DNA of 26,350 nt, taken from contig CAZCRN010000001.1 of the NCBI GenBank assembly GCA_964501125.1, positions 1 through 26,350 on the forward strand. Reading direction: 5' to 3'. Below the pieces are notes generated by a model, which did no database searches, had not been told where the DNA came from, and was given only the letters and a program-made list of their open reading frames with translations. Within the stretch, counting starts at the first letter, position 1. Every line of letters begins with the position of its first letter. The translations under genes were made by a program, and so were the position numbers. The DNA comes from Candidatus Hadarchaeota archaeon. Lineage in GTDB: Archaea > Hadarchaeota > Hadarchaeia > Hadarchaeales > CAZCRN01. Of this stretch, positions 8,752-22,395 are shown in pieces.

Positions 8752-12858
<4,107 letters not shown>

Positions 12859-13287
12859 ATGGGCATAAAGCTGAGCTCTAATGAAATGCGTCACATCGCA
12901 TTGTTCGAGAGTTTAACTGGCGCTACCGTGCACGATTGTTTAACGAGCGAGAAAGAAAACAAGATCACTTTTGTCGTAAAACAAGGCGATATCGGATTGG
13001 CGATAGGTAAGGGAGGCAGGAGGATTCAACAGGTTAGACGGATGATCGGCAAAAGTGTTGAGGTCCTTGAACACTCGGACGATCCGGTAGAGTTTATCAA
13101 AAACATCTTTGCTCCGGCCAGGGTCAAGGCGGTGCAAATTGTTGAGCGAGATGGTCGGAAGGTGGCATTCGTAGAAGTCGAAGAGTCTGATAAGGCTCTG
13201 GCAGTCGGTAAAGGGGGCCGAAAGATTCAACGCGCAAAAATGCTTGCCAATCGCCACCATGAAATTTACGATATATCTCTCGCATGA
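12859..13287 (+). CDS. nusA: Archaeal NusA (two KH domains)
   Basis: GLAIGKGG and [10 protein letters not shown] motifs; conserved position. Confidence 0.95.
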
Positions 13288-13328
13288 ATTTTAAAGGCGC
13301 AGAATCGAAGTATTTTACGAGTGGTCCA

Positions 13329-13766
13329 ATGAGCAAGGGTTCTAGGGGCGAATTCGCCGCCCGCAAAATCAGCCGTAAGCGGCAGAGGTTTAGATGGAAA
13401 GACGTCGATTACAAGCGCCGTGTGCTGCGTCTGGATGAGAAGGCGGATCCGTTGGAAGGCGCTCCGCAAGGCCGCGGCATAGTTCTCGAGAAAGTCGGCG
13501 TTGAAGCAAAGCAGCCCAACTCGGCAATTCGGAAATGCGCGCGCGTGCAAATTATAAAGAATGGTCGGCAGGTAACGGCATTTGCTCCCGGTGTTAACGC
13601 GATAAACTTCATCGATGAGCATGACGAAGTAATCATCGAGGGTATCGGCGGTGCAAAAGGCGGTTCGAAAGGAGACATCCCAGGGGTGCGTTACAAGATA
13701 ATTTCGGTGAATGGGGTATCGCTTTTAGAGCTCGTCAAAGGTCGCAAGGAAAAGCCAACTCGGTGA
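13329..13766 (+). CDS. rps12: 30S ribosomal protein uS12
   Basis: [12 protein letters not shown] and GDIPGVRYK motifs. Start placed at the second Met (MSKG..GEFAARK), matching archaeal S12 N-termini; the ORF track starts at 13284. Confidence 0.97.
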
Positions 13767-14377
13767 GGTCATTGCCATTCAAATATTTTGGAAAGTGGTC
13801 AGTAGATGAGATAGTAATAAAAGACCCGGGCCTCAAGCGATACATCCATTTGCAACCAAGCTTAGTTTTACACGCCGCGGGCAGACACTCGAAAAAGCAG
13901 TTCGGGAAAGCAGAAGTCCCACTAGTCGAGCGTTTAATAAACAAGTTGATGCGTTCGGGCCCCGGCGTTAGAAAGTTGGGCGGCAAGTTCATTCGTGGTG
14001 CAAGGGCATGTGGGAAAAAACATAAAGTTCATGCGATTACCCGCAAGGCATTTGAAATAATCGAAGAGCGAACAAAAAAGAACCCGATTCAAGTTTTAGT
14101 CGATGCGGTTCAAAATGTTGCACCACGGGAGGAAACGACCCGTATAAGCTATGGTGGAATCACTTACCACTTAGCTGTGGATTCAGCCCCCCAGCGGAGA
14201 CTCGACGTTGCACTCAAAAACTTAGCCGCTGGCGCATATTCAGCATCGTTCAAAAATAAAAGACCCATCCAGGAGTGCTTGGCAGAAGAGTTGATCATGG
14301 CCGCAAACTACGACATGAAGAGTTTTGCTATCGCGCGCAAGGAAGAAACCGAGCGCATCGCTAAAGGGGCAAGATAG
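13763..14377 (+). CDS. rps7: 30S ribosomal protein uS7
   Basis: [35 protein letters not shown] and [12 protein letters not shown] motifs. Confidence 0.97.
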
Positions 14378-14380
14378 TCG

Positions 14381-14420
14381 CCAAAATGCTTTATAATGGG
14401 TCTGTTTCAATTATATTGAA
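14381..14420 (+). promoter_or_regulatory. Putative internal tuf promoter (BRE+TATA) followed by an inverted repeat
   Basis: CCAAAATG-C-TTTATAA (14390-14396), then TTCAAT-TAT-ATTGAA (14406-14420), SD AGGAGG (14431-14436) and ATG 14444. Confidence 0.55.
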
Positions 14421-14443
14421 TCAGTCAAAAAGGAGGATGTAAA

Positions 14444-15706
14444 ATGGCAAAGCCACACCTGAACTTGATTACCATCGGACACGTGGATCACGGCAAGTCC
14501 ACCCTAATAGGCCGGATGTTCTACGAGAAAGGGATAGTCAAGGAAGAGGATATCAAGAAATTCGAGGCGATGGGCGATAAGGGCAAGACCTTCAAGTTCG
14601 CTTGGTTGATGGACGCTCTCAAAGAAGAGCGAGAGCGTGGACTGACAATCGATCTCGCCCACAAGAGATTCGAGACGGACAAGTACTACTTTACTGTAAT
14701 TGACGCTCCGGGGCACCGAGACTTCGTCAAAAACATGATCACGGGGGCCAGCCAAGCAGACGCCGCAGTTCTTGTAGTTGCAGCCGACGATGGCATCATG
14801 CCACAGACACGGGAGCATGCAGCACTCGCGTACACGCTCGGTGTTGGACATTTGATCGTCGTCATAAACAAGATGGACTTGGTCGACTACAAGGAGGACG
14901 TTTACAACAAGATCAAATCAGAAGTAATCGATTTGCTCAAGGGAATTGGCTACAAGAATCCTGAGGCATTCCCGTTTATCCCAGCAGCCGCGTTTTATGG
15001 CGAGTGTGTTACGAAGCCAAGCGAAAAGATGAAGTGGTACACGGGATCTGAATTCTTCGCTTCGCTTGATACGTGCAAAGTGCCCGAGAAACCTTTGGAC
15101 AAGCCTCTGCGTATACCCGTGCAAGACGTGTACTCGATTACTGGGGTTGGAACTGTACCGGTCGGGCGCGTTGAGACGGGTATGCTAAAAGCCGGCGATA
15201 CTGTGGTTTTCGAACCGGCGGGCAAGAGCGGTGAAGTCAGATCGATCGAGATGCACCATGAGACAATACCAAAAGCGGAACCAGGTGATAACATCGGCTT
15301 CAACGTACGCGGATTAGCCCGAGCGGATATAAGGCGAGGCGATGTCGCTGGACACACCACGGCACCCCCAACGGTGGCGAAGGAATTCAAGGCCCGAATA
15401 GCGGTTCTGCAGCATCCAACTGCAATAACAGCAGGCTACACACCGGTATTCCATGCACACACGGCCCAAGTCTCATGTACCATTACGGAGACCTCGCAGA
15501 AATTAGACCCGAAGACGGGTGAGGTCGTCGAAGAAAAGCCAGAGTTCATAAAGAAGGGAGACATGGCGACGATCGTGGTCAAGCCTAGGCAGCCCATGGT
15601 AATAGAGAAGACAGCGGACCTCCCACAGCTGAGCCGCTTCGCGATTCGAGACATGGGTATGACGATCGCAGCCGGCGCATGCGTGGATGTAACACCAGCT
15701 AAGTAA
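14444..15706 (+). CDS. tuf: Translation elongation factor EF-1alpha
   Basis: [30 protein letters not shown] and [13 protein letters not shown] motifs. Confidence 0.99.
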
Positions 15707-15719
15707 CCGAGAACGTCCA

Positions 15720-15737
15720 ACATTTTTTATTCCTTTC
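15720..15737 (+). terminator. Possible T-rich terminator/attenuator between tuf and rps10
   Basis: ACATTTTTTATTCCTTTC pyrimidine tract just after the tuf stop. Confidence 0.35.
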
Positions 15738-15750
15738 AGCACCCCTACTA

Positions 15751-16068
15751 GTGGAGATTAGCTTGCAAAAGGCTCGCATACGTTTGTCGGGCACAGATCC
15801 GAAAAAATTAGATCAGGTCTGCAAACAGATAACCGAGATCGCCAAGCGGGTCGGGGTCAAAATGTCCGGTCCGGTGCCGCTGCCGACGCGCCGAATAGTA
15901 GTCCCGACTCGCAAGTCGCCCGATGGTGAGGGAACGGCTACGTGGGATAAATGGGAACTGCGAGTTCACAAGCGTTTGATCGACATGGAGGCAGACGAGC
16001 GAGCAATGCGCCAGATCATGCGTGTTCAGATCCCTGAGGATGTCACGATCGAGATCGAGCTTAAGTAG
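15751..16068 (+). CDS. rps10: 30S ribosomal protein uS10
   Basis: [40 protein letters not shown] motifs. Confidence 0.98.
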
Positions 16069-16104
16069 CTAACTTCTTTTAGTTGCATCTCAATATTTTG
16101 GTAT

Positions 16105-16190
16105 GCCGGGGTGGCGGAGTGGAAACGCGTAGGCCTTGAGAGCCTATGGCCCTTTGGGCCTCGAGGGTTCGAATCCCTTCCCCGGCGCCA
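16105..16190 (+). tRNA. tRNA-Ser(TGA), long variable arm, CCA encoded
   Basis: GCCGGGG/CCCCGGC-G-CCA; anticodon arm TAGGC-CT-TGA-GA-GCCTA; variable arm GGCCC-TTT-GGGCC. Confidence 0.97.
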
Positions 16191-16191
16191 G

Positions 16192-16223
16192 GTGACCCAA
16201 ATGAAGCGATTTGGATGGGTTGA
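16192..16223 (+). repeat. Direct repeat copy 1: degenerate duplicate of the archease SD/5' end
   Basis: GTGACCCAAATGAAGCGATTTGGATGGGTTGA matches 17206-17237 at 28/32 positions and encodes MKRFGWVE versus archease MKRFEWVE. Confidence 0.9.
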
Positions 16224-16245
16224 GTCCAAATTTTTAATCGCCAAG

Positions 16246-16284
16246 TTTATATGCTGGCTGTTAAGATAATTTAACATATGTTAA
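16246..16284 (+). promoter_or_regulatory. TATA box and 14-bp palindromic operator of the MNT/HEPN cassette
   Basis: TTTATATG at 16246-16253 is about 25-30 nt upstream of ATG 16278 (probably leaderless). The perfect palindrome TTAACATATGTTAA at 16271-16284 spans the start codon. Confidence 0.6.
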
Positions 16285-16793
16285 TCGAATCTAACACTCA
16301 GAAAGTTCTGGCGTTTGTCTTCAAATACCCAACTAGGGGTTTCACAATCCGAGCCATCGCGAGGGGTCTGAAGATTTCCCCCCCAACCGTTTCCAACATT
16401 GTGGAAAAACTGGAAAAGAATGAACTGGTTAAAATTGTCAAAGAAGAGGTTCAACATAAGGTATACGGCAATCTCGAGAGTGAGCATTTTAGAGATTTAA
16501 AAAGGATTTATAACGTTTTTTCTGTGCGTGGGCTAAAGCACTTGCTGGTAAAAGAATTCAGACCAAATACCATCGTACTTTACGGCGCCTATGCTCGGGG
16601 CGAGGACAGAGAAGATTCGGATATAGATATTTATGTAGATTCTAGGATTGAGAAAGAAGTAAACTTAGAAACTTTTGAGAAAGAGCTAGGCAGGAGGATA
16701 CATCTTATAGTGAGGGACGCAAAGAAAATTCCCAGCGAACTCAAAAGAAGCTTGATCAATGGCGTCATCTTGTATGGTGTGATCGAATGGTAG
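16278..16793 (+). CDS. HTH-fused minimal nucleotidyltransferase (MNT antitoxin-like)
   Basis: N-terminal wHTH (TIRAIARGLKISPPTVSNIVEKL) and C-terminal Pol-beta-type motif LYGAYARGE...SDIDI; overlaps the downstream HEPN gene. Confidence 0.88.
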   Translation: MLIESNTQKVLAFVFKYPTRGFTIRAIARGLKISPPTVSNIVEKLEKNELVKIVKEEVQHKVYGNLESEHFRDLKRIYNVFSVRGLKHLLVKEFRPNTIVLYGAYARGEDREDSDIDIYVDSRIEKEVNLETFEKELGRRIHLIVRDAKKIPSELKRSLINGVILYGVIEW

Positions 16794-17209
16794 ATTTCGA
16801 GTATTATTTAACAAAAAAAATCGTGAAACGAAAATCAAGGGATACAAACTTAGCGAAGAGCTTGCTGGATTCTGCGAGGGACAGGTTTAAATTTGCCGTG
16901 AAGATAAAAGGCGAGAAACCAAGGTACGCACTGGAACTCGCTTACGAATCCGTCCGTGAATTGCTTGACGCACTATTATCACTGAGGGGTTACAAGACGT
17001 GGTCACATGAGGCAGCGATATCCTTCCTCAGGAACTTTGACGCGTTTGAGTCTACAGAGGTAGAGAGATTAAATGTAAGCAGGATGAAGAGACACTCAAG
17101 CAAATACTACGGAGCGATGCTAGACGCTAGAGAGGCTGAAGAAGAAATTACATTTCTGCGAAGCGTGCTTCAAAAGCTCGTGACGATTGTTGAGACTGAG
17201 TTGAAGTGA
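16787..17209 (+). CDS. HEPN-domain protein (putative RNase toxin)
   Basis: 140 aa, predicted helical; AYES.RELL.ALL...G....SHEAAI and R..RH...YYG motifs; coupled to the MNT gene. Confidence 0.8.
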   Translation: MVDFEYYLTKKIVKRKSRDTNLAKSLLDSARDRFKFAVKIKGEKPRYALELAYESVRELLDALLSLRGYKTWSHEAAISFLRNFDAFESTEVERLNVSRMKRHSSKYYGAMLDAREAEEEITFLRSVLQKLVTIVETELK

Positions 17210-17237
17210 CCTAAATGAAGCGATTTGAGTGGGTCGA
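17206..17237 (+). repeat. Direct repeat copy 2 (intact archease 5' end; also supplies the HEPN stop codon)
   Basis: GTGACCTAAATGAAGCGATTTGAGTGGGTCGA, 1014 bp downstream of copy 1. Confidence 0.9.
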
Positions 17238-17643
17238 ACATCCCTCAGATGTGGGTTTTCGGGCCTATGGCCGCGACTTGGCAGAAGCATTCGAGAACGC
17301 TGCGGCCGCGCTCTTCGAGGTGATGGTCGATACGAGCAAGGTTGAGCCGCGAGAAGAAATCTCGATCGAGTTGGAAGCCGAAGACGAGGGGGCATTACTC
17401 TACGATTGGCTCGATCGGTTGCTCTATTTTCACGATGCCCGGGGGCTCGTGATGTCGAAGTTCAAAGTAGAGGAACTATCAAGTTCGGAACGGGGTTTCA
17501 AGCTCAAGGCAAAAGCTTGGGGCGAACGATTCGACGCCGCTCGCCATCCCGAGCGAACCGCCGTCAAGGCGATGACTTATCACATGATGCAGATCAAACG
17601 TGAGCGCGATCGCTGTTGGGTACAAGCGGTTGTAGATGTCTAA
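17215..17643 (+). CDS. Archease (RtcB activator)
   Basis: [11 protein letters not shown]...G..L.EAF.NAA.ALF and VKAMTYH..........QAVVDV motifs; adjacent to rtcB. Confidence 0.95.
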
Positions 17644-17702
17644 GGCAATCCTTTTCAATAAAATGGTTTATCTGCGCTGCCTATATTCTTGTTAGGGATG
17701 GT

Positions 17703-20525
17703 ATGGTTTGGACCGGAAAAATCAAGCAGATCGATGAAGTTCGTTGGGAAATCCCGCAGGACTATAAACGTGGGATGCGAGTGCCGGCCCGGATTTTTGC
17801 GGACAAAGCGCTGTTAGATGAGATACGTAGGGATCTAACACTTGAACAATCGGCAAATGTATCATTTCTGCAAGGCATTTACAAATACTCGATTACGCTT
17901 CCGGATGGGCATCAGGGTTACGGTTTTCCGATTGGAGGCGTTGCGGCGACCGATGCGGAGACTGGCGTTATAAGTCCGGGCGGGGTCGGCTACGACGTGA
18001 ACTGTTTGGTTCCCGGTACCCTCATCCTCACACGCGATGGGTATCGCAGACCGATAGGTGATTTGAAAAACTGTTGGGCCCATTCTAAGCTCACGGTTTT
18101 CAACCTAAACGATCATGAAGCGGAAAACGCTTCGATAATTCGATTCATAGAGTTTCCTCCAAATACAGAACTTCATCGTCTACGCACTGCCAATGGCAGA
18201 GAGATCACCCTCACAGGAGACCATCCAATTTTAACTCCTAGGGGCATGTGTTTAGCACGCAAAATCCATCCAGGTACCCCGGTAGCTGTTTATCCATTTG
18301 AAGGGGTAGATTACAATCCTCCGCCCGATGAAACGATACTTGAAGAGAGGGATTTTGAGCCATCTGTCGCTAAGGAATTAAAGAAGCGTGGTTTTCTACC
18401 CATTCACATGAACCACCCGAAAATCGGCACCTTAGCACGATTAGTCGGTTACATCCTTGGAGATGGCTGGTTTAACACTTGGGTAGAGAGACGTAAAGAT
18501 CGGAAAAGTCCGCGGCATAGATTGATAGTCGGTATCTCTGGCGAGATTGATGGTTTAGAGAAACTTAGGGAAGATATCCAGAGTCTTGGATTCAAGCCTT
18601 CCCGGATTTATTCGAAGAGTCGCAGGCAGACGATAAAAACACCATACGGGTGGTTCGAAACGAATTGTTCCGAAAATTGTATCCACATTTCATCGAAATC
18701 GCTCGCTACCTTGATTAACAAACTAGGTGTTCCTCTTGGCAGCAAAGTCTTCGCCGATTTTGAGGTTCCTTCTTGGATAAGAAGTGCTCCCTTATGGATT
18801 AAAAGAAACTTTCTGGCGGGTTTTTTCGGCGCGGAGCTGTCCAAACCATCAGTGGTCAAAGAGCATCCATACACCTTCAACGTACCGTCCATAATCATTT
18901 CAAAGAGAAGAAATATCAAGGATTCGGGTTACAAATTTTTAAATCAGATCCGCGCATTACTTGGTGAGTTCGGGATAAAAACTCTTGAAATTTATGAAAT
19001 TCCATTGACCAAGAGCACGGTGGGTCTCAGGCTCCCCATCTCAAAAAATGATGAGAATCTTTTGAGGCTTTGGTCTAAGATCAGTTACGAATTCAATGAA
19101 GAACGTCGCCTGCGCGCAGCTCTAGCGGCTGAGTACTTGCGCCTGAAGTTAAAACACAGAGGAATGTTGAAAGATAGGTCAAAGCCGATCGCCTTCCCAA
19201 CTTTTAATGAATATGTCGAAAAAACGAAAGCGGAGCTGGGTCGCTCGGGGTTGGTGTACGATATCGTTGTAAAGAAAGAGATTGTCCGCGGATTTAAAGG
19301 ATTTGTGTATGATTTCACGGTTAACCACGAGGATCACAACTTCGTTGCAGACTGCTTCGTCGTTTCAAACTGTGGCGTCCGCTTACTGCGCACGGACCTC
19401 AACCGCAAAGACATCGAGCCTAAGCTGCGCGAGCTGGTCGACGCACTTTTCAGAAACGTGCCCTCCGGGCTAGGCAGCAGAGGAAAAATGCGGCTGACCA
19501 TGGCACAGTTGGATGAAGTACTAGAACGCGGGGCTCGCTGGGCTGTCGAAAATGGCTTCGGCTGGCCCGAGGATCTCGAGCGGCTGGAGGAAGGAGGGGA
19601 GATGGCTGGCGCAGATGCCGCGCGGGTCAGCGTTCTAGCGAAGCAACGTGGTTTGCCGCAGCTCGGTAGCCTCGGCTCTGGGAATCACTTCCTCGAAATT
19701 CAATGCGTCGACAAGATCTTCGACCCTGATGTCGCACAAAAGTTTGGCCTAACGCACGAGGGGCAGGTCACGGTCATGATTCACTGTGGCTCTCGTGGTT
19801 TGGGCCACCAGGTTTGCTCCGATTATCTGCGCACGATGGAACATGCAGTTCGCCAATACAAAATCGAGTTGCCCGATCGGGAGCTTGTTAATGTTCCTGT
19901 CACTTCCCCTGAGGGTCAAGCTTACTTCTCGGCAATGGCCTGCGCCGCGAACTACGCCTGGGCAAATCGCCAGATGATCGTGCACTGGGTGCGCGAGTCT
20001 TTCGAACATGTGCTTGGACGGGATGCCGAGAGTTTGGGACTACACATAGTGTACGACGTTGCCCACAACATCGCAAAGCTCGAGGAGCACAAAATAGACG
20101 GCGAGCGGCGTAAGGTCTATGTTCACCGCAAAGGAAGTACGCGCGCTTTCCCGCCCGGTCACCCGGACGTGCCCTCCATATATCGCGAGGTCGGTCAACC
20201 CGTGTTGATCCCCGGGGATATGGGTACGGCCTCCTATGTTTTAGTTGGCACCGAGCAAGGGATGCGGGAGACCTTTGCCTCAACTGCCCATGGTTCTGGG
20301 CGCCACCTGAGCAGGACTGCCGCGCGAAAGCGATACTGGGGTCAGGACATCAAGCGCAGGCTCGAAGCTCAAGGGATTATCACCCGCTGCGCGAAGATCT
20401 CAGTGATGGCGGAGGAGTGTCCTGAGGCTTATAAGGACGTGGACAAGGTGGTAAAAGTTAGCCACGATGCAGGGATAGCCCGGATGGTCGCTCGGTTAAA
20501 GCCGATGGGAGTTGCTAAGGGTTAA
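17703..20525 (+). CDS. rtcB: RNA-splicing ligase RtcB precursor (940 aa; 484 aa after intein excision)
   Basis: [22 protein letters not shown]|[32 protein letters not shown] and HGSGR motifs. Start at ATG 17703 after GGGATGG. Confidence 0.97.
18003..19370 (+). mobile_element. Intein (456 aa) with LAGLIDADG homing endonuclease domain in RtcB
   Basis: Starts [10 protein letters not shown]; block [12 protein letters not shown]; block [10 protein letters not shown]; block [11 protein letters not shown]; ends [19 protein letters not shown]; +1 residue is Cys. Removal restores [16 protein letters not shown]. Confidence 0.96.
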
Positions 20526-21387: not shown

Positions 21388-22395
21388 GTGCCAAGAAAAC
21401 ACCACTCAAGGCGAGGGTCGTTGGCGTACATGCCGCGCGTGCGCGCCCCCCGACCCATAGCCCGCGTGCGGGCTTGGCCAGCGGAAGCTGGATTGGGCTT
21501 ACAGGGATTTGTGGGTTACAAGGCAGGCATGACTCAAGTGTTTCTAATAGACGATCGCAAGGGCAGCCCTACCGCAGGTCAGGAGATATGTGTGCCTGCG
21601 ACCGTGATCGATGCACCACCGCTGATGGTTGGCGCGATTAAGCTTTACGGCCAGACAACTCGTGGTTTTAATACCTTGACCCAAATCTGGGCTAGCGAGC
21701 TCTCCAAAGATCTCACGCGTACCATAAATGTGCCGAAGAAATACGATTTGCAAAAAGCTCTTGAGCGGGCCGAGGACCTGATCAATGACGGCAAGGTCAC
21801 AGATATTCGAATCATCGCATATACTCAACCGCGTCTGGCAGGCGTCCCGAAGAAGAAGCCAGAGTTGGTGGAGATCCGTGTGGGCGGCGAGTCCATTGAA
21901 GAGCGGTGGAAATATGCCAAGGATTTGCTCGGCAAGGAGGTTCGGGTGACCGATGTATTCAAGGAGGGCGGATACGTTGATGTGCTTGCGATCACAAAAG
22001 GCAAGGGTTTCCAAGGACCCGTCAAGCGTTGGGGCATTAAGATTCTGCCACGCAAGACCCGCGGTGTCAAACGAAAGGTCGGTGCGATTGGTCCGTGGTC
22101 GCCTCCACGCGTGATGTGGACGGTCCCGGGGGCAGGGCAGATGGGCTACCACCAGCGGACGGAGTTCAACAAACGTTTTTTGAAGCTGGGCACAGAAGGG
22201 AAGGAGGTTACCCCAAGCGGCGGTTTCTTGCGCTATGGCCCGGTGAAAGGTGATTTCGTCCTGTTGGCTGGTTCGGTTCCTGGACCGACCAAGCGTCTTA
22301 TACACCTCAGGCAAGCGATCAGATCGCTTGCTGGAACACCAACAACACCCCCATCGATCGTTTCCATAAGCACGGCTTCTCAGCAAGGTGCGTGA
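21388..22395 (+). CDS. rpl3: 50S ribosomal protein uL3
   Basis: [30 protein letters not shown] and [10 protein letters not shown] motifs. Confidence 0.98.

Follow-up and report, generated by a model that had tools for sequence, protein, structure and literature searches.

The window analysed here, the whole 26,350-nt stretch (positions 1 to 26,350 of contig CAZCRN010000001.1) from the Candidatus Hadarchaeota archaeon assembly GCA_964501125.1, contains a two-gene MNT/HEPN cassette wedged into the essential tRNA-Ser–archease–rtcB operon without breaking it. The cassette lies between two copies of a 32-nt direct repeat made of the archease 5′ end, while relatives that lack the cassette have a single copy of this sequence at the corresponding site. 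The probable history, in our judgement, is that a self-contained toxin–antitoxin-like cassette was inserted with a long duplication of its target and then spread horizontally to the same site in Hadarchaeota.

A repeat search of the window returned one meaningful repeat, the 32-nt pair at 16192–16223 and 17206–17237 (28/32 identical, 88%; spacing 1014 nt), and a degenerate pattern describing both copies matches the window exactly twice and gives no match in 100 dinucleotide-preserving shuffles. The two copies bracket a 982-bp insert that contains the MNT and HEPN genes only. On the left, tRNA-Ser(UGA) (16105–16190, plus strand; ARAGORN; Rfam tRNA, 59.8 bits) forms the border of the ancestral tRNA-Ser/archease junction, and one base separates its CCA end (16190) from copy 1. 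Copy 1 comprises an orphaned Shine-Dalgarno (SD) sequence, GGTGA (16191–16195), and archease codons 1–8; its ATG at 16201 opens a decaying 22-codon open reading frame (ORF), MKRFGWVESKFLIAKFICWLLR, which starts with MKRFGWVE and ends at a stop codon at 16267–16269. On the right, copy 2 provides a working SD-like GTGA, a spacer and codons 1–8 of the intact archease gene (17215–17643, plus strand; Pfam Archease, 7.2e-48; NCBIfam PRK00407, 8e-50), and it contains both the archease ATG (17215) and the TGA stop codon of the HEPN gene (17207–17209). The close matches to this archease are all from metagenome-assembled genomes of Hadarchaeota (Hadesarchaea).

The insert differs from its surroundings in composition, with a guanine-plus-cytosine (GC) fraction of 0.39–0.43 versus 0.52–0.56 in the flanks (0.415 for the cassette versus 0.527 for the remainder of the window). 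ORF, Pfam, NCBIfam and PADLOC scans found no integrase or transposase among the genes between the repeats, and an Rfam scan found tRNA only. The repeat search revealed no duplication of the tRNA-Ser 3′ end, the repeat beginning after the CCA, and there are no terminal inverted repeats: the only inverted pair in 15500–18500 is a 12-nt one at 16497 and 17647, away from the cassette ends. A preliminary description of this locus had already reported the bracketing repeat, the decayed and the functional archease start, the unduplicated tRNA end and an AT-rich insert (here 41.5% versus 52.7% GC) devoid of mobility genes, and each of these points is borne out by our searches and by direct reading of the sequence.

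Relatives without the cassette reveal the site before insertion. Thirty-four archease loci were recovered from species-representative genomes (loci used for comparison are designated by L numbers). In ten of these loci (L011, L013–L017, L019, L020, L024 and L039) the archease ATG lies 9–11 nt after tRNA-Ser(UGA), connected to it by GGTGAnnnn, and the nearest relatives of the window, L045/L046 and L136, likewise have an empty site; such sites, each with one repeat copy, are present in at least 12 other Hadarchaeota. The empty-site junction reads ...GCGCCA-GGTGAnnnn-ATGAAGCG..., with tRNA-Ser joining archease exactly at the repeat, and the distance between copy 1 and the tRNA in the window equals the distance between the archease start and the tRNA in empty sites. 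Specifically, L045 is 96% identical to the window in EF-1α, 92% in S10, 91% in L3 and 91% in archease, and in blastn its single site aligns to both window copies: L045 3–4028 corresponds to window 12192–16224, and L045 4004–4787 corresponds to window 17214–18005. Loci without the cassette contain no second archease-start copy. Neither of the two outcomes that the preliminary description had named as refuting its reading was thus obtained. Because these empty sites are single-copy, they directly show that the ancestral order was tRNA-Ser–archease–rtcB, as the preliminary description had proposed, and that the target was duplicated.

In other relatives the gap between tRNA-Ser and archease is occupied by unrelated inserts, carrying, among others, DUF553, ABC transporter, PhoU/PiT, TnpB-like or VapB-like genes. 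These inserts start right after the CCA, without duplication of the archease start, and contain no MNT/HEPN homologues. The gap is an insertion hotspot, at which duplication of the archease start is specific to the MNT/HEPN cassette. In L009, a DUF553 homologue alone occupies the gap. In another Hadarchaeon (L137, 1129–1535), a PIN-domain gene, split into two ORFs by a frameshift, lies between archease and the next gene, indicating that the archease neighbourhood attracts further toxin-type genes.

The cassette is also present at this site in other Hadarchaeota. The preliminary description had suggested looking for it at other archease starts, and MNT homologues with 81–89% identity were found in three further Hadarchaeota lineages (L044; L042/L043; L040/L041), indicating spread at this site and not a private event. 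The left junction seen in the window recurs in L044 and L042/L043. Its right junction recurs in L044 and L040/L041, and also in L042 to the extent visible on the short contig of that locus, which stops just past the right-hand copy. The orphan archease-start copy has decayed differently in L044, L042 and L040. The carriers are not the nearest relatives of the window: the EF-1α protein of L042 is only 82% identical and L3 of L040 71% identical, versus 96% and 91%, respectively, for the empty-site L045.

Fourfold-degenerate sites provide a direct comparison of cassette and host. Between the window and L042, such sites are 62% identical in MNT (33/53) versus 34% in EF-1α (51/151; Fisher p = 3.6e-4) and 25% in S10. 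Between the window and L044, they are 58% identical in MNT and 69% in HEPN, while housekeeping genes of the window and the closer, empty-site L045 reach only 44–57%. Because the cassette has accumulated far less synonymous divergence than EF-1α, it was exchanged among Hadarchaeota after the hosts had diverged, and to the same site. Furthermore, in the cassette tree the window, L044 and L042 are mutually ~85% identical and L040 is at ~77%, which conflicts with short host markers that put L044 near L040.

Within a genome, the two repeat copies carry the same host-specific states. In the window, GTGACCyAA and CGATTT stand in copy 1 and copy 2 alike, as they do at the native archease starts of L045 and L136; the two L044 copies have AGTGATCGC and CGCTTC. 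The presence of host-specific states in both copies suggests that each acquisition formed the repeat anew out of the local target, or that the repeat was homogenised against that target; gene conversion following a transfer mediated by the flanks would be an alternative to homology-guided integration of a circle.

A sister haplotype recovered in two separate assemblies (L004 and L005) locates a boundary within the population. Along 2.6 kb of upstream genes (S7–EF-1α–S10–tRNA) and along the cassette (two single-nucleotide differences), its identity to the window is 99.8%; from 17241, four bases past copy 2 and inside archease, identity falls to ~79%, which indicates that the right repeat end is a real recombination boundary. 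The divergent archease segment corresponds to window 17238–17604 and L004 3673–4036. It is the window allele of archease, and not that of L004, that best matches L045, and no donor of the L004/L005 allele was present among the fetched loci. Two further contigs of the species, L001 (1–46) and L002 (1–21), were compared with window 16032–16078; they match the window from 16078, 27 nt before tRNA-Ser, and carry unrelated sequence in place of the S10 3′ end. This divergence, located at contig ends, is either a strain-level breakpoint or an assembly branch.

Individual carriers show additional rearrangements. In L040 (GCA_030018345.1, JASEFD010000002; 1530–5000), nested insertions interrupt the left side: ~2.5 kb, including a VapB-like DUF7557 gene and a 99-aa partner, separates tRNA-Ser from the orphan archease start (ACG, 4062), and a DUF553 gene lies between the orphan start and the MNT promoter. 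Next to the 2.5-kb insert, a stretch suspected to be a second, decayed tRNA 3′ end was rejected as not significant, 59% of shuffles scoring as high. L042 (2142–2236) keeps an intact MNT gene and lacks ~330 nt from within its HEPN gene, which fits loss of a toxin with its antitoxin kept; the archease-start copy following this HEPN gene has ACG in place of ATG, and 28 nt of contig remain beyond it.

Flanking duplications extend beyond the archease locus. When metagenomes were scanned with an MNT profile, 80 loci with 32–58% identity were recovered; in most of them the HEPN partner is directly downstream of MNT, and none of them is near archease. In 38 non-redundant cassettes, the 300–400 nt 5′ of MNT were compared with the region around the HEPN stop codon, and repeats scoring at or above the threshold of 16 were detected in 9/38, versus 0/165 shifted control positions in the same loci. 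The repeats are variable in length (23, 30, ~50, ~63, ~110 and ~155 nt), and the identifiable targets are ends of conserved genes or tRNAs. Specifically, the duplicated segment is the prefoldin 5′ end in L131/L132 (~63 nt; the downstream copy is the working one, as with archease), the 3′ end of an intron-containing tRNA in L133/L134 (30 nt), the 3′ end of a gene for an MBL-like protein in L051 (~155 nt, perfect), the 3′ end of a GTPase gene in L094 (23 nt) and, in L110, the 5′ end of an opposite-strand gene encoding 367 aa (~110 nt, diverged); targets of the remaining four repeats could not be identified. Most of the repeat copies differ from each other and are therefore not assembly artefacts.

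The repeats are positioned tightly around the cassette. At one end they usually lie 55–80 nt before the MNT ATG, abutting the promoter, and at the other end they lie at the HEPN stop codon, which overlaps the first repeat bases in the window, L044, L131 and L110. DNA homology between copies in unrelated contexts is confined to the interval from about −45 relative to the MNT ATG (35–48 nt upstream) to the HEPN stop. Together, these homology limits and tight repeats indicate that the mobile unit is a bare ~1-kb cassette of promoter and two genes. This unit has neither a recombinase nor inverted repeats. The copies share no conserved end sequence beyond promoter and stop codon, and no common motif is obvious by eye among the targets. 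In 11 of 12 repeat-flanked loci the cassette has a lower GC content than its host, and a scan of viral contigs returned no MNT relative. Tight flanking by target duplications is thus a property of the whole cassette family and is not private to the window. At some loci (L079, L097, L107/L109 and L058), two or three wHTH (winged helix-turn-helix)-MNT copies lie within a few kb; the flanking repeat of L058 resembles the cassette's own promoter, suggesting an array of cassettes.

The two cassette genes are adjacent and co-oriented, with a 7-nt overlap. The upstream gene (16278–16793, plus strand) encodes a 171-aa wHTH-MNT protein, a putative antitoxin and autorepressor. It passes the Pfam cut-offs for Polbeta (PF18765, 34.4 bits; cut-off 26.9) and NTP_transf_2 (PF01909, 33.1 bits; cut-off 21), residues 17–56, in its N-terminal MarR-like winged helix, match the MarR/Fe_dep_repress helix-turn-helix in Pfam, and residues G103, G108-E109-D110, S114-D115 and D117 are invariant, with a GED...SDxD motif that corresponds to the G[SA]...D.D motif of Polβ-type nucleotidyltransferases. 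The downstream gene (16787–17209, plus strand) encodes a 140-aa protein, a putative toxin, for which searches of Pfam, of NCBIfam and of PDB (by phmmer and by profile) found no sequence match; one source labels a homologue as UPF0332 family. PADLOC matches the pair to the candidate defence system PDC-M05, its best library match (MNT as PDC-M05A, 1e-15; the HEPN partner as PDC-M05B, 1e-5).

The AlphaFold2 model of the 140-aa protein (predicted local distance difference test score 94.2; predicted template modelling score 0.89) supports a HEPN fold. In a Foldseek search with this model, the top PDB matches are almost all HEPN proteins, including AF_0298, TT1696, sacsin HEPN, Csm6 and HepT toxins (2hsb, 1ufb and 3o10 among the entries), with template modelling scores of 0.58–0.70 and a probability of 1.00, but with E-values of only 0.01–0.1. 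Residues S73-H74 are invariant and E75 nearly invariant. The curated MntA equivalog NF047752 of NCBIfam scores 29.6 bits, under its cut-off of 60. The MNT/HEPN identity given in the preliminary description accordingly holds at the level of superfamily or fold, through Pfam for MNT and through AlphaFold2 and Foldseek for HEPN, and the pair is not the curated MntA/HepT equivalog.

The cassette appears to bring its own regulatory region. The leader (16224–16277, plus strand) contains a TATA-like TTTATAT (16246–16252) ~30 nt 5′ of the MNT ATG, followed by the palindrome TTAACATATGTTAA (16271–16284), which is centred on that ATG and is presumably the operator of the wHTH domain. This arrangement of promoter and palindrome is kept in family members from unrelated contexts. 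From these features, the cassette would be a leaderless, autoregulated operon. Its two products would function as a toxin–antitoxin pair; archease–rtcB, directly behind it, is probably co-transcribed with it.

On this basis we propose the following course of events. The inserted unit is self-contained and ~0.98 kb long; its wHTH-MNT and HEPN-fold genes stand behind an archaeal TATA promoter of their own, with a palindromic operator across the start codon. It entered archease within the first ~26 nt of the coding sequence, 10 nt past tRNA-Ser(UGA), and ~32 nt of target, comprising the SD sequence and codons 1–8, were duplicated in the process, leaving an upstream copy orphaned and decaying and a downstream copy that preserves archease and provides the HEPN stop. 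As to the chemistry of the primary insertion, the duplication may have originated by break repair, through widely staggered breaks with fill-in, or by microhomology-guided template switching. Subsequent spread would most likely have proceeded by homologous recombination via the repeat or the conserved flanks. In one version, a circle carrying one repeat copy would be excised, with the junction ...GAGACTGAGTTGAA-[one repeat copy]-TCCAAATTTTTAATCG, and would re-integrate by a Campbell-type event into the conserved archease 5′ block of a new host; integration at this block would yield the same junctions and repeats resembling the host's own allele.

The pattern across the family suggests a recombinase-free route of movement. 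We consider it quite unlikely, on present evidence, that wHTH-MNT/HEPN cassettes go further and form a previously unrecognised class of recombinase-free archaeal mobile element in which the pair promotes its own insertion, for example with a DNA-binding Polβ-family nucleotidyltransferase or toxin-triggered damage driving break repair or template switching and thereby long duplication. In a variant of this idea, landing before archease–rtcB would be selected, since RtcB can re-ligate the 2′,3′-cyclic-phosphate ends made by HEPN RNases.

Several observations weigh against insertion with long target duplication followed by horizontal spread. All same-species contigs (L001–L005) carry the cassette, so that at contig level there is no empty site within the population, and no excised circle, empty-site read or experimental transposition was seen. 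The host-specific states shared by both repeat copies are equally explicable by gene conversion after a single old insertion. The window repeat, at 32 nt, is barely above the 30-bp threshold that Furuta et al. applied to exclude integrase attachment (att) sites. In the family, 29 of the 38 cassettes have no detectable repeat, perhaps through decay or another route of arrival, and confidence is lowest for the two longest repeats: that of L051, perfect over ~155 nt, could be an assembly-graph ambiguity, and that of L117, 100 nt long, may stem from native tandem paralogues. As regards the cargo, the HEPN protein lacks the canonical Rx4-6H motif (RX4HXY) and has a conserved R99-x2-R102-[H/N]-x3-Y107-Y108-G in which Tyr replaces the expected His; with that motif missing, the putative RNase or toxin activity is uncertain and unproven.

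Classical site-specific integration is an alternative that seems unlikely. In this scenario a small non-autonomous element, with an att site mimicking the archease 5′ end, would be moved by a tyrosine or serine recombinase supplied in trans. Direct repeats that restore the target are a hallmark of attL/attR, the duplicated 30 nt in L133/L134 are a tRNA 3′ end and thus a classic att target, the junctions are identical in those Hadarchaeota lineages in which both ends can be read, and 32 nt is within the range of att identity segments. However, no recombinase gene lies in or beside the cassette, either in the window or at the other inspected loci, the copies share no end sequence beyond promoter and stop codon, and the repeats, from 23 to ~155 nt, occur at different targets with no common motif obvious by eye; an attP would need to be re-invented for each target. 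The preliminary description had held that a non-autonomous cassette integrated into the archease start: insertion there, with duplication of the target, stands, and the non-autonomous part, read as a recombinase acting in trans, is hypothetical. Other mechanisms were set aside on gross features. A casposon-like or integron-like origin, with fixed short target duplications or attC sites, is at odds with a locus that lacks Cas1, an integrase and terminal inverted repeats alike, and an insertion sequence or transposon is at odds with a duplication that is long and variable and with cassette ends free of terminal inverted repeats.

We regard it as very unlikely that a larger plasmid or virus once integrated at tRNA-Ser/archease and lost everything but its addictive pair, leaving the cassette as a remnant. 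Toxin–antitoxin pairs are expected to resist loss, and the gap is a hotspot with other inserts in relatives, but those inserts begin right after the CCA and do not duplicate the archease start. In ~10 independent loci, moreover, the repeats lie within ~0–60 nt of promoter and stop codon, with spacings of 1012–1143 nt, and independent decay would not be so uniform. The chance of a single ancient insertion inherited vertically, with empty sites produced by precise deletion between the repeats and no horizontal movement, we put marginally lower still. Recombination between the repeat copies would restore a perfect empty site, meaning that empty sites alone are not proof of independent gain, and the junctions are the same in all carriers; such a history is contradicted by the synonymous divergence of the cassette, which is far below that of EF-1α and S10 in the same genomes and also below that between the window and its nearest empty-site relative, and by the disagreement between cassette and host trees. 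Given that the sequence was assembled from a metagenome, one might invoke an artefact of assembly or a chance resemblance for the repeat itself, a prospect that is practically negligible given the two pattern matches in the window and none in 100 shuffles, the four differences between the copies, which are incompatible with a collapsed or duplicated k-mer path, and the recurrence of the structure in five further contigs (four sample accessions) and three other lineages.

Toxin–antitoxin pairs, MNT/HEPN pairs especially, are among the most abundant and most patchily distributed archaeal genes and are routinely called mobile; to our knowledge, there is no known mechanism by which a bare two-gene cassette moves. 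The present locus is a clean case: the filled site can be set beside many empty ones, there is evidence that the cassette spread horizontally to this single target, and the question of how stand-alone addiction cassettes move becomes directly testable. The exact boundaries and variable duplications extend an insertion mode so far documented for restriction-modification (RM) units of bacteria alone to another class of addiction module and to archaea.

This mode, 'insertion with long target duplication', has been described for bacterial RM units (Nobusato et al. 2000, Gene 259:99; Furuta, Abe and Kobayashi 2010, PMC2853133; Mruk and Kobayashi 2014, PMC3874152). In the survey of Furuta et al. (PMC2853133), RM units without other mobility genes are flanked by long, variable target duplications that often span a translation start or stop, the repeats align to a single-copy empty site, and the GC of the insert is lower than that of the host; no archaeal case passed the screen, and DNA breakage by the restriction enzyme was the suspected cause. 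The cassette agrees with these units in being compact and free of mobility genes, in having variable repeats that align to a single-copy empty site and span start and stop codons, in its GC below that of the host, and in size, the insert (982 bp) being shorter than 20 kb and the window repeat longer than 30 bp, although its 32 nt are borderline and at the short end of the Furuta range. It differs in that its cargo is MNT/HEPN and toxin–antitoxin-like, its hosts are archaea, and breakage by a restriction enzyme has no obvious counterpart for a HEPN (RNase-type) toxin. The insertion mode is thus the same as for RM units, with a different class of cargo. A literature search with incomplete coverage of subscription journals found no report of long target duplication for toxin–antitoxin systems, HEPN/MNT or archaea, and no report of a link between archease and HEPN.

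Two other known systems are relevant for comparison. The HepT/MntA (HEPN/MNT) type VII toxin–antitoxin system, exemplified by Shewanella SO_3165/3166 (Yao et al. 2020, PMC7641770), likewise consists of two overlapping genes, MNT then HEPN, with a nucleotidyltransferase motif and a HEPN-fold partner. The cassette is unlike it in that its MNT has an N-terminal MarR-like wHTH and falls below the NCBIfam MntA cut-off, and its HEPN has no Pfam HEPN match and reads R-x4-Y where RX4HXY is expected; toxicity and AMPylation are only putative for the cassette. Integrase-mediated att integration resembles the present case in that the repeats restore the interrupted gene, the insertion lies beside a tRNA, and in one family member the duplicated segment is a tRNA 3′ end, whereas the cassette has no integrase, the tRNA-Ser 3′ end of the window is single, the targets have no common motif obvious by eye, and the repeat length varies.

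Around the cassette, the window has a conserved gene order: S7–EF-1α–S10–tRNA-Ser(UGA), then, past the cassette, archease–RtcB–RNA methyltransferase–L3–L4. The RtcB RNA ligase gene (17700–20525, plus strand; Pfam RtcB, 1.6e-173, and Intein_splicing), part of the conserved tRNA-Ser–archease–rtcB block, has a low-GC part at ~18000–19200, contains an intein and encodes 941 aa; the RtcB proteins of L045/L046 and L048 have 484 aa and no intein, indicating that the intein is polymorphic among close Hadarchaeota. In the L3 gene, 10 of the 16 substitutions between the window and L001 fall within 90 nt (window 21669–21759), a cluster that looks like a short recombination patch. Finally, the first ~26 nt of archease (17215–17240, ATGAAGCGCTTCGAGTGGGTCGAGCA) show almost no synonymous variation among Hadarchaeota species (L006–L045), in genes that are otherwise saturated; this near-invariant block could reflect a constraint on translation initiation beside the tRNA or a role in recombination.

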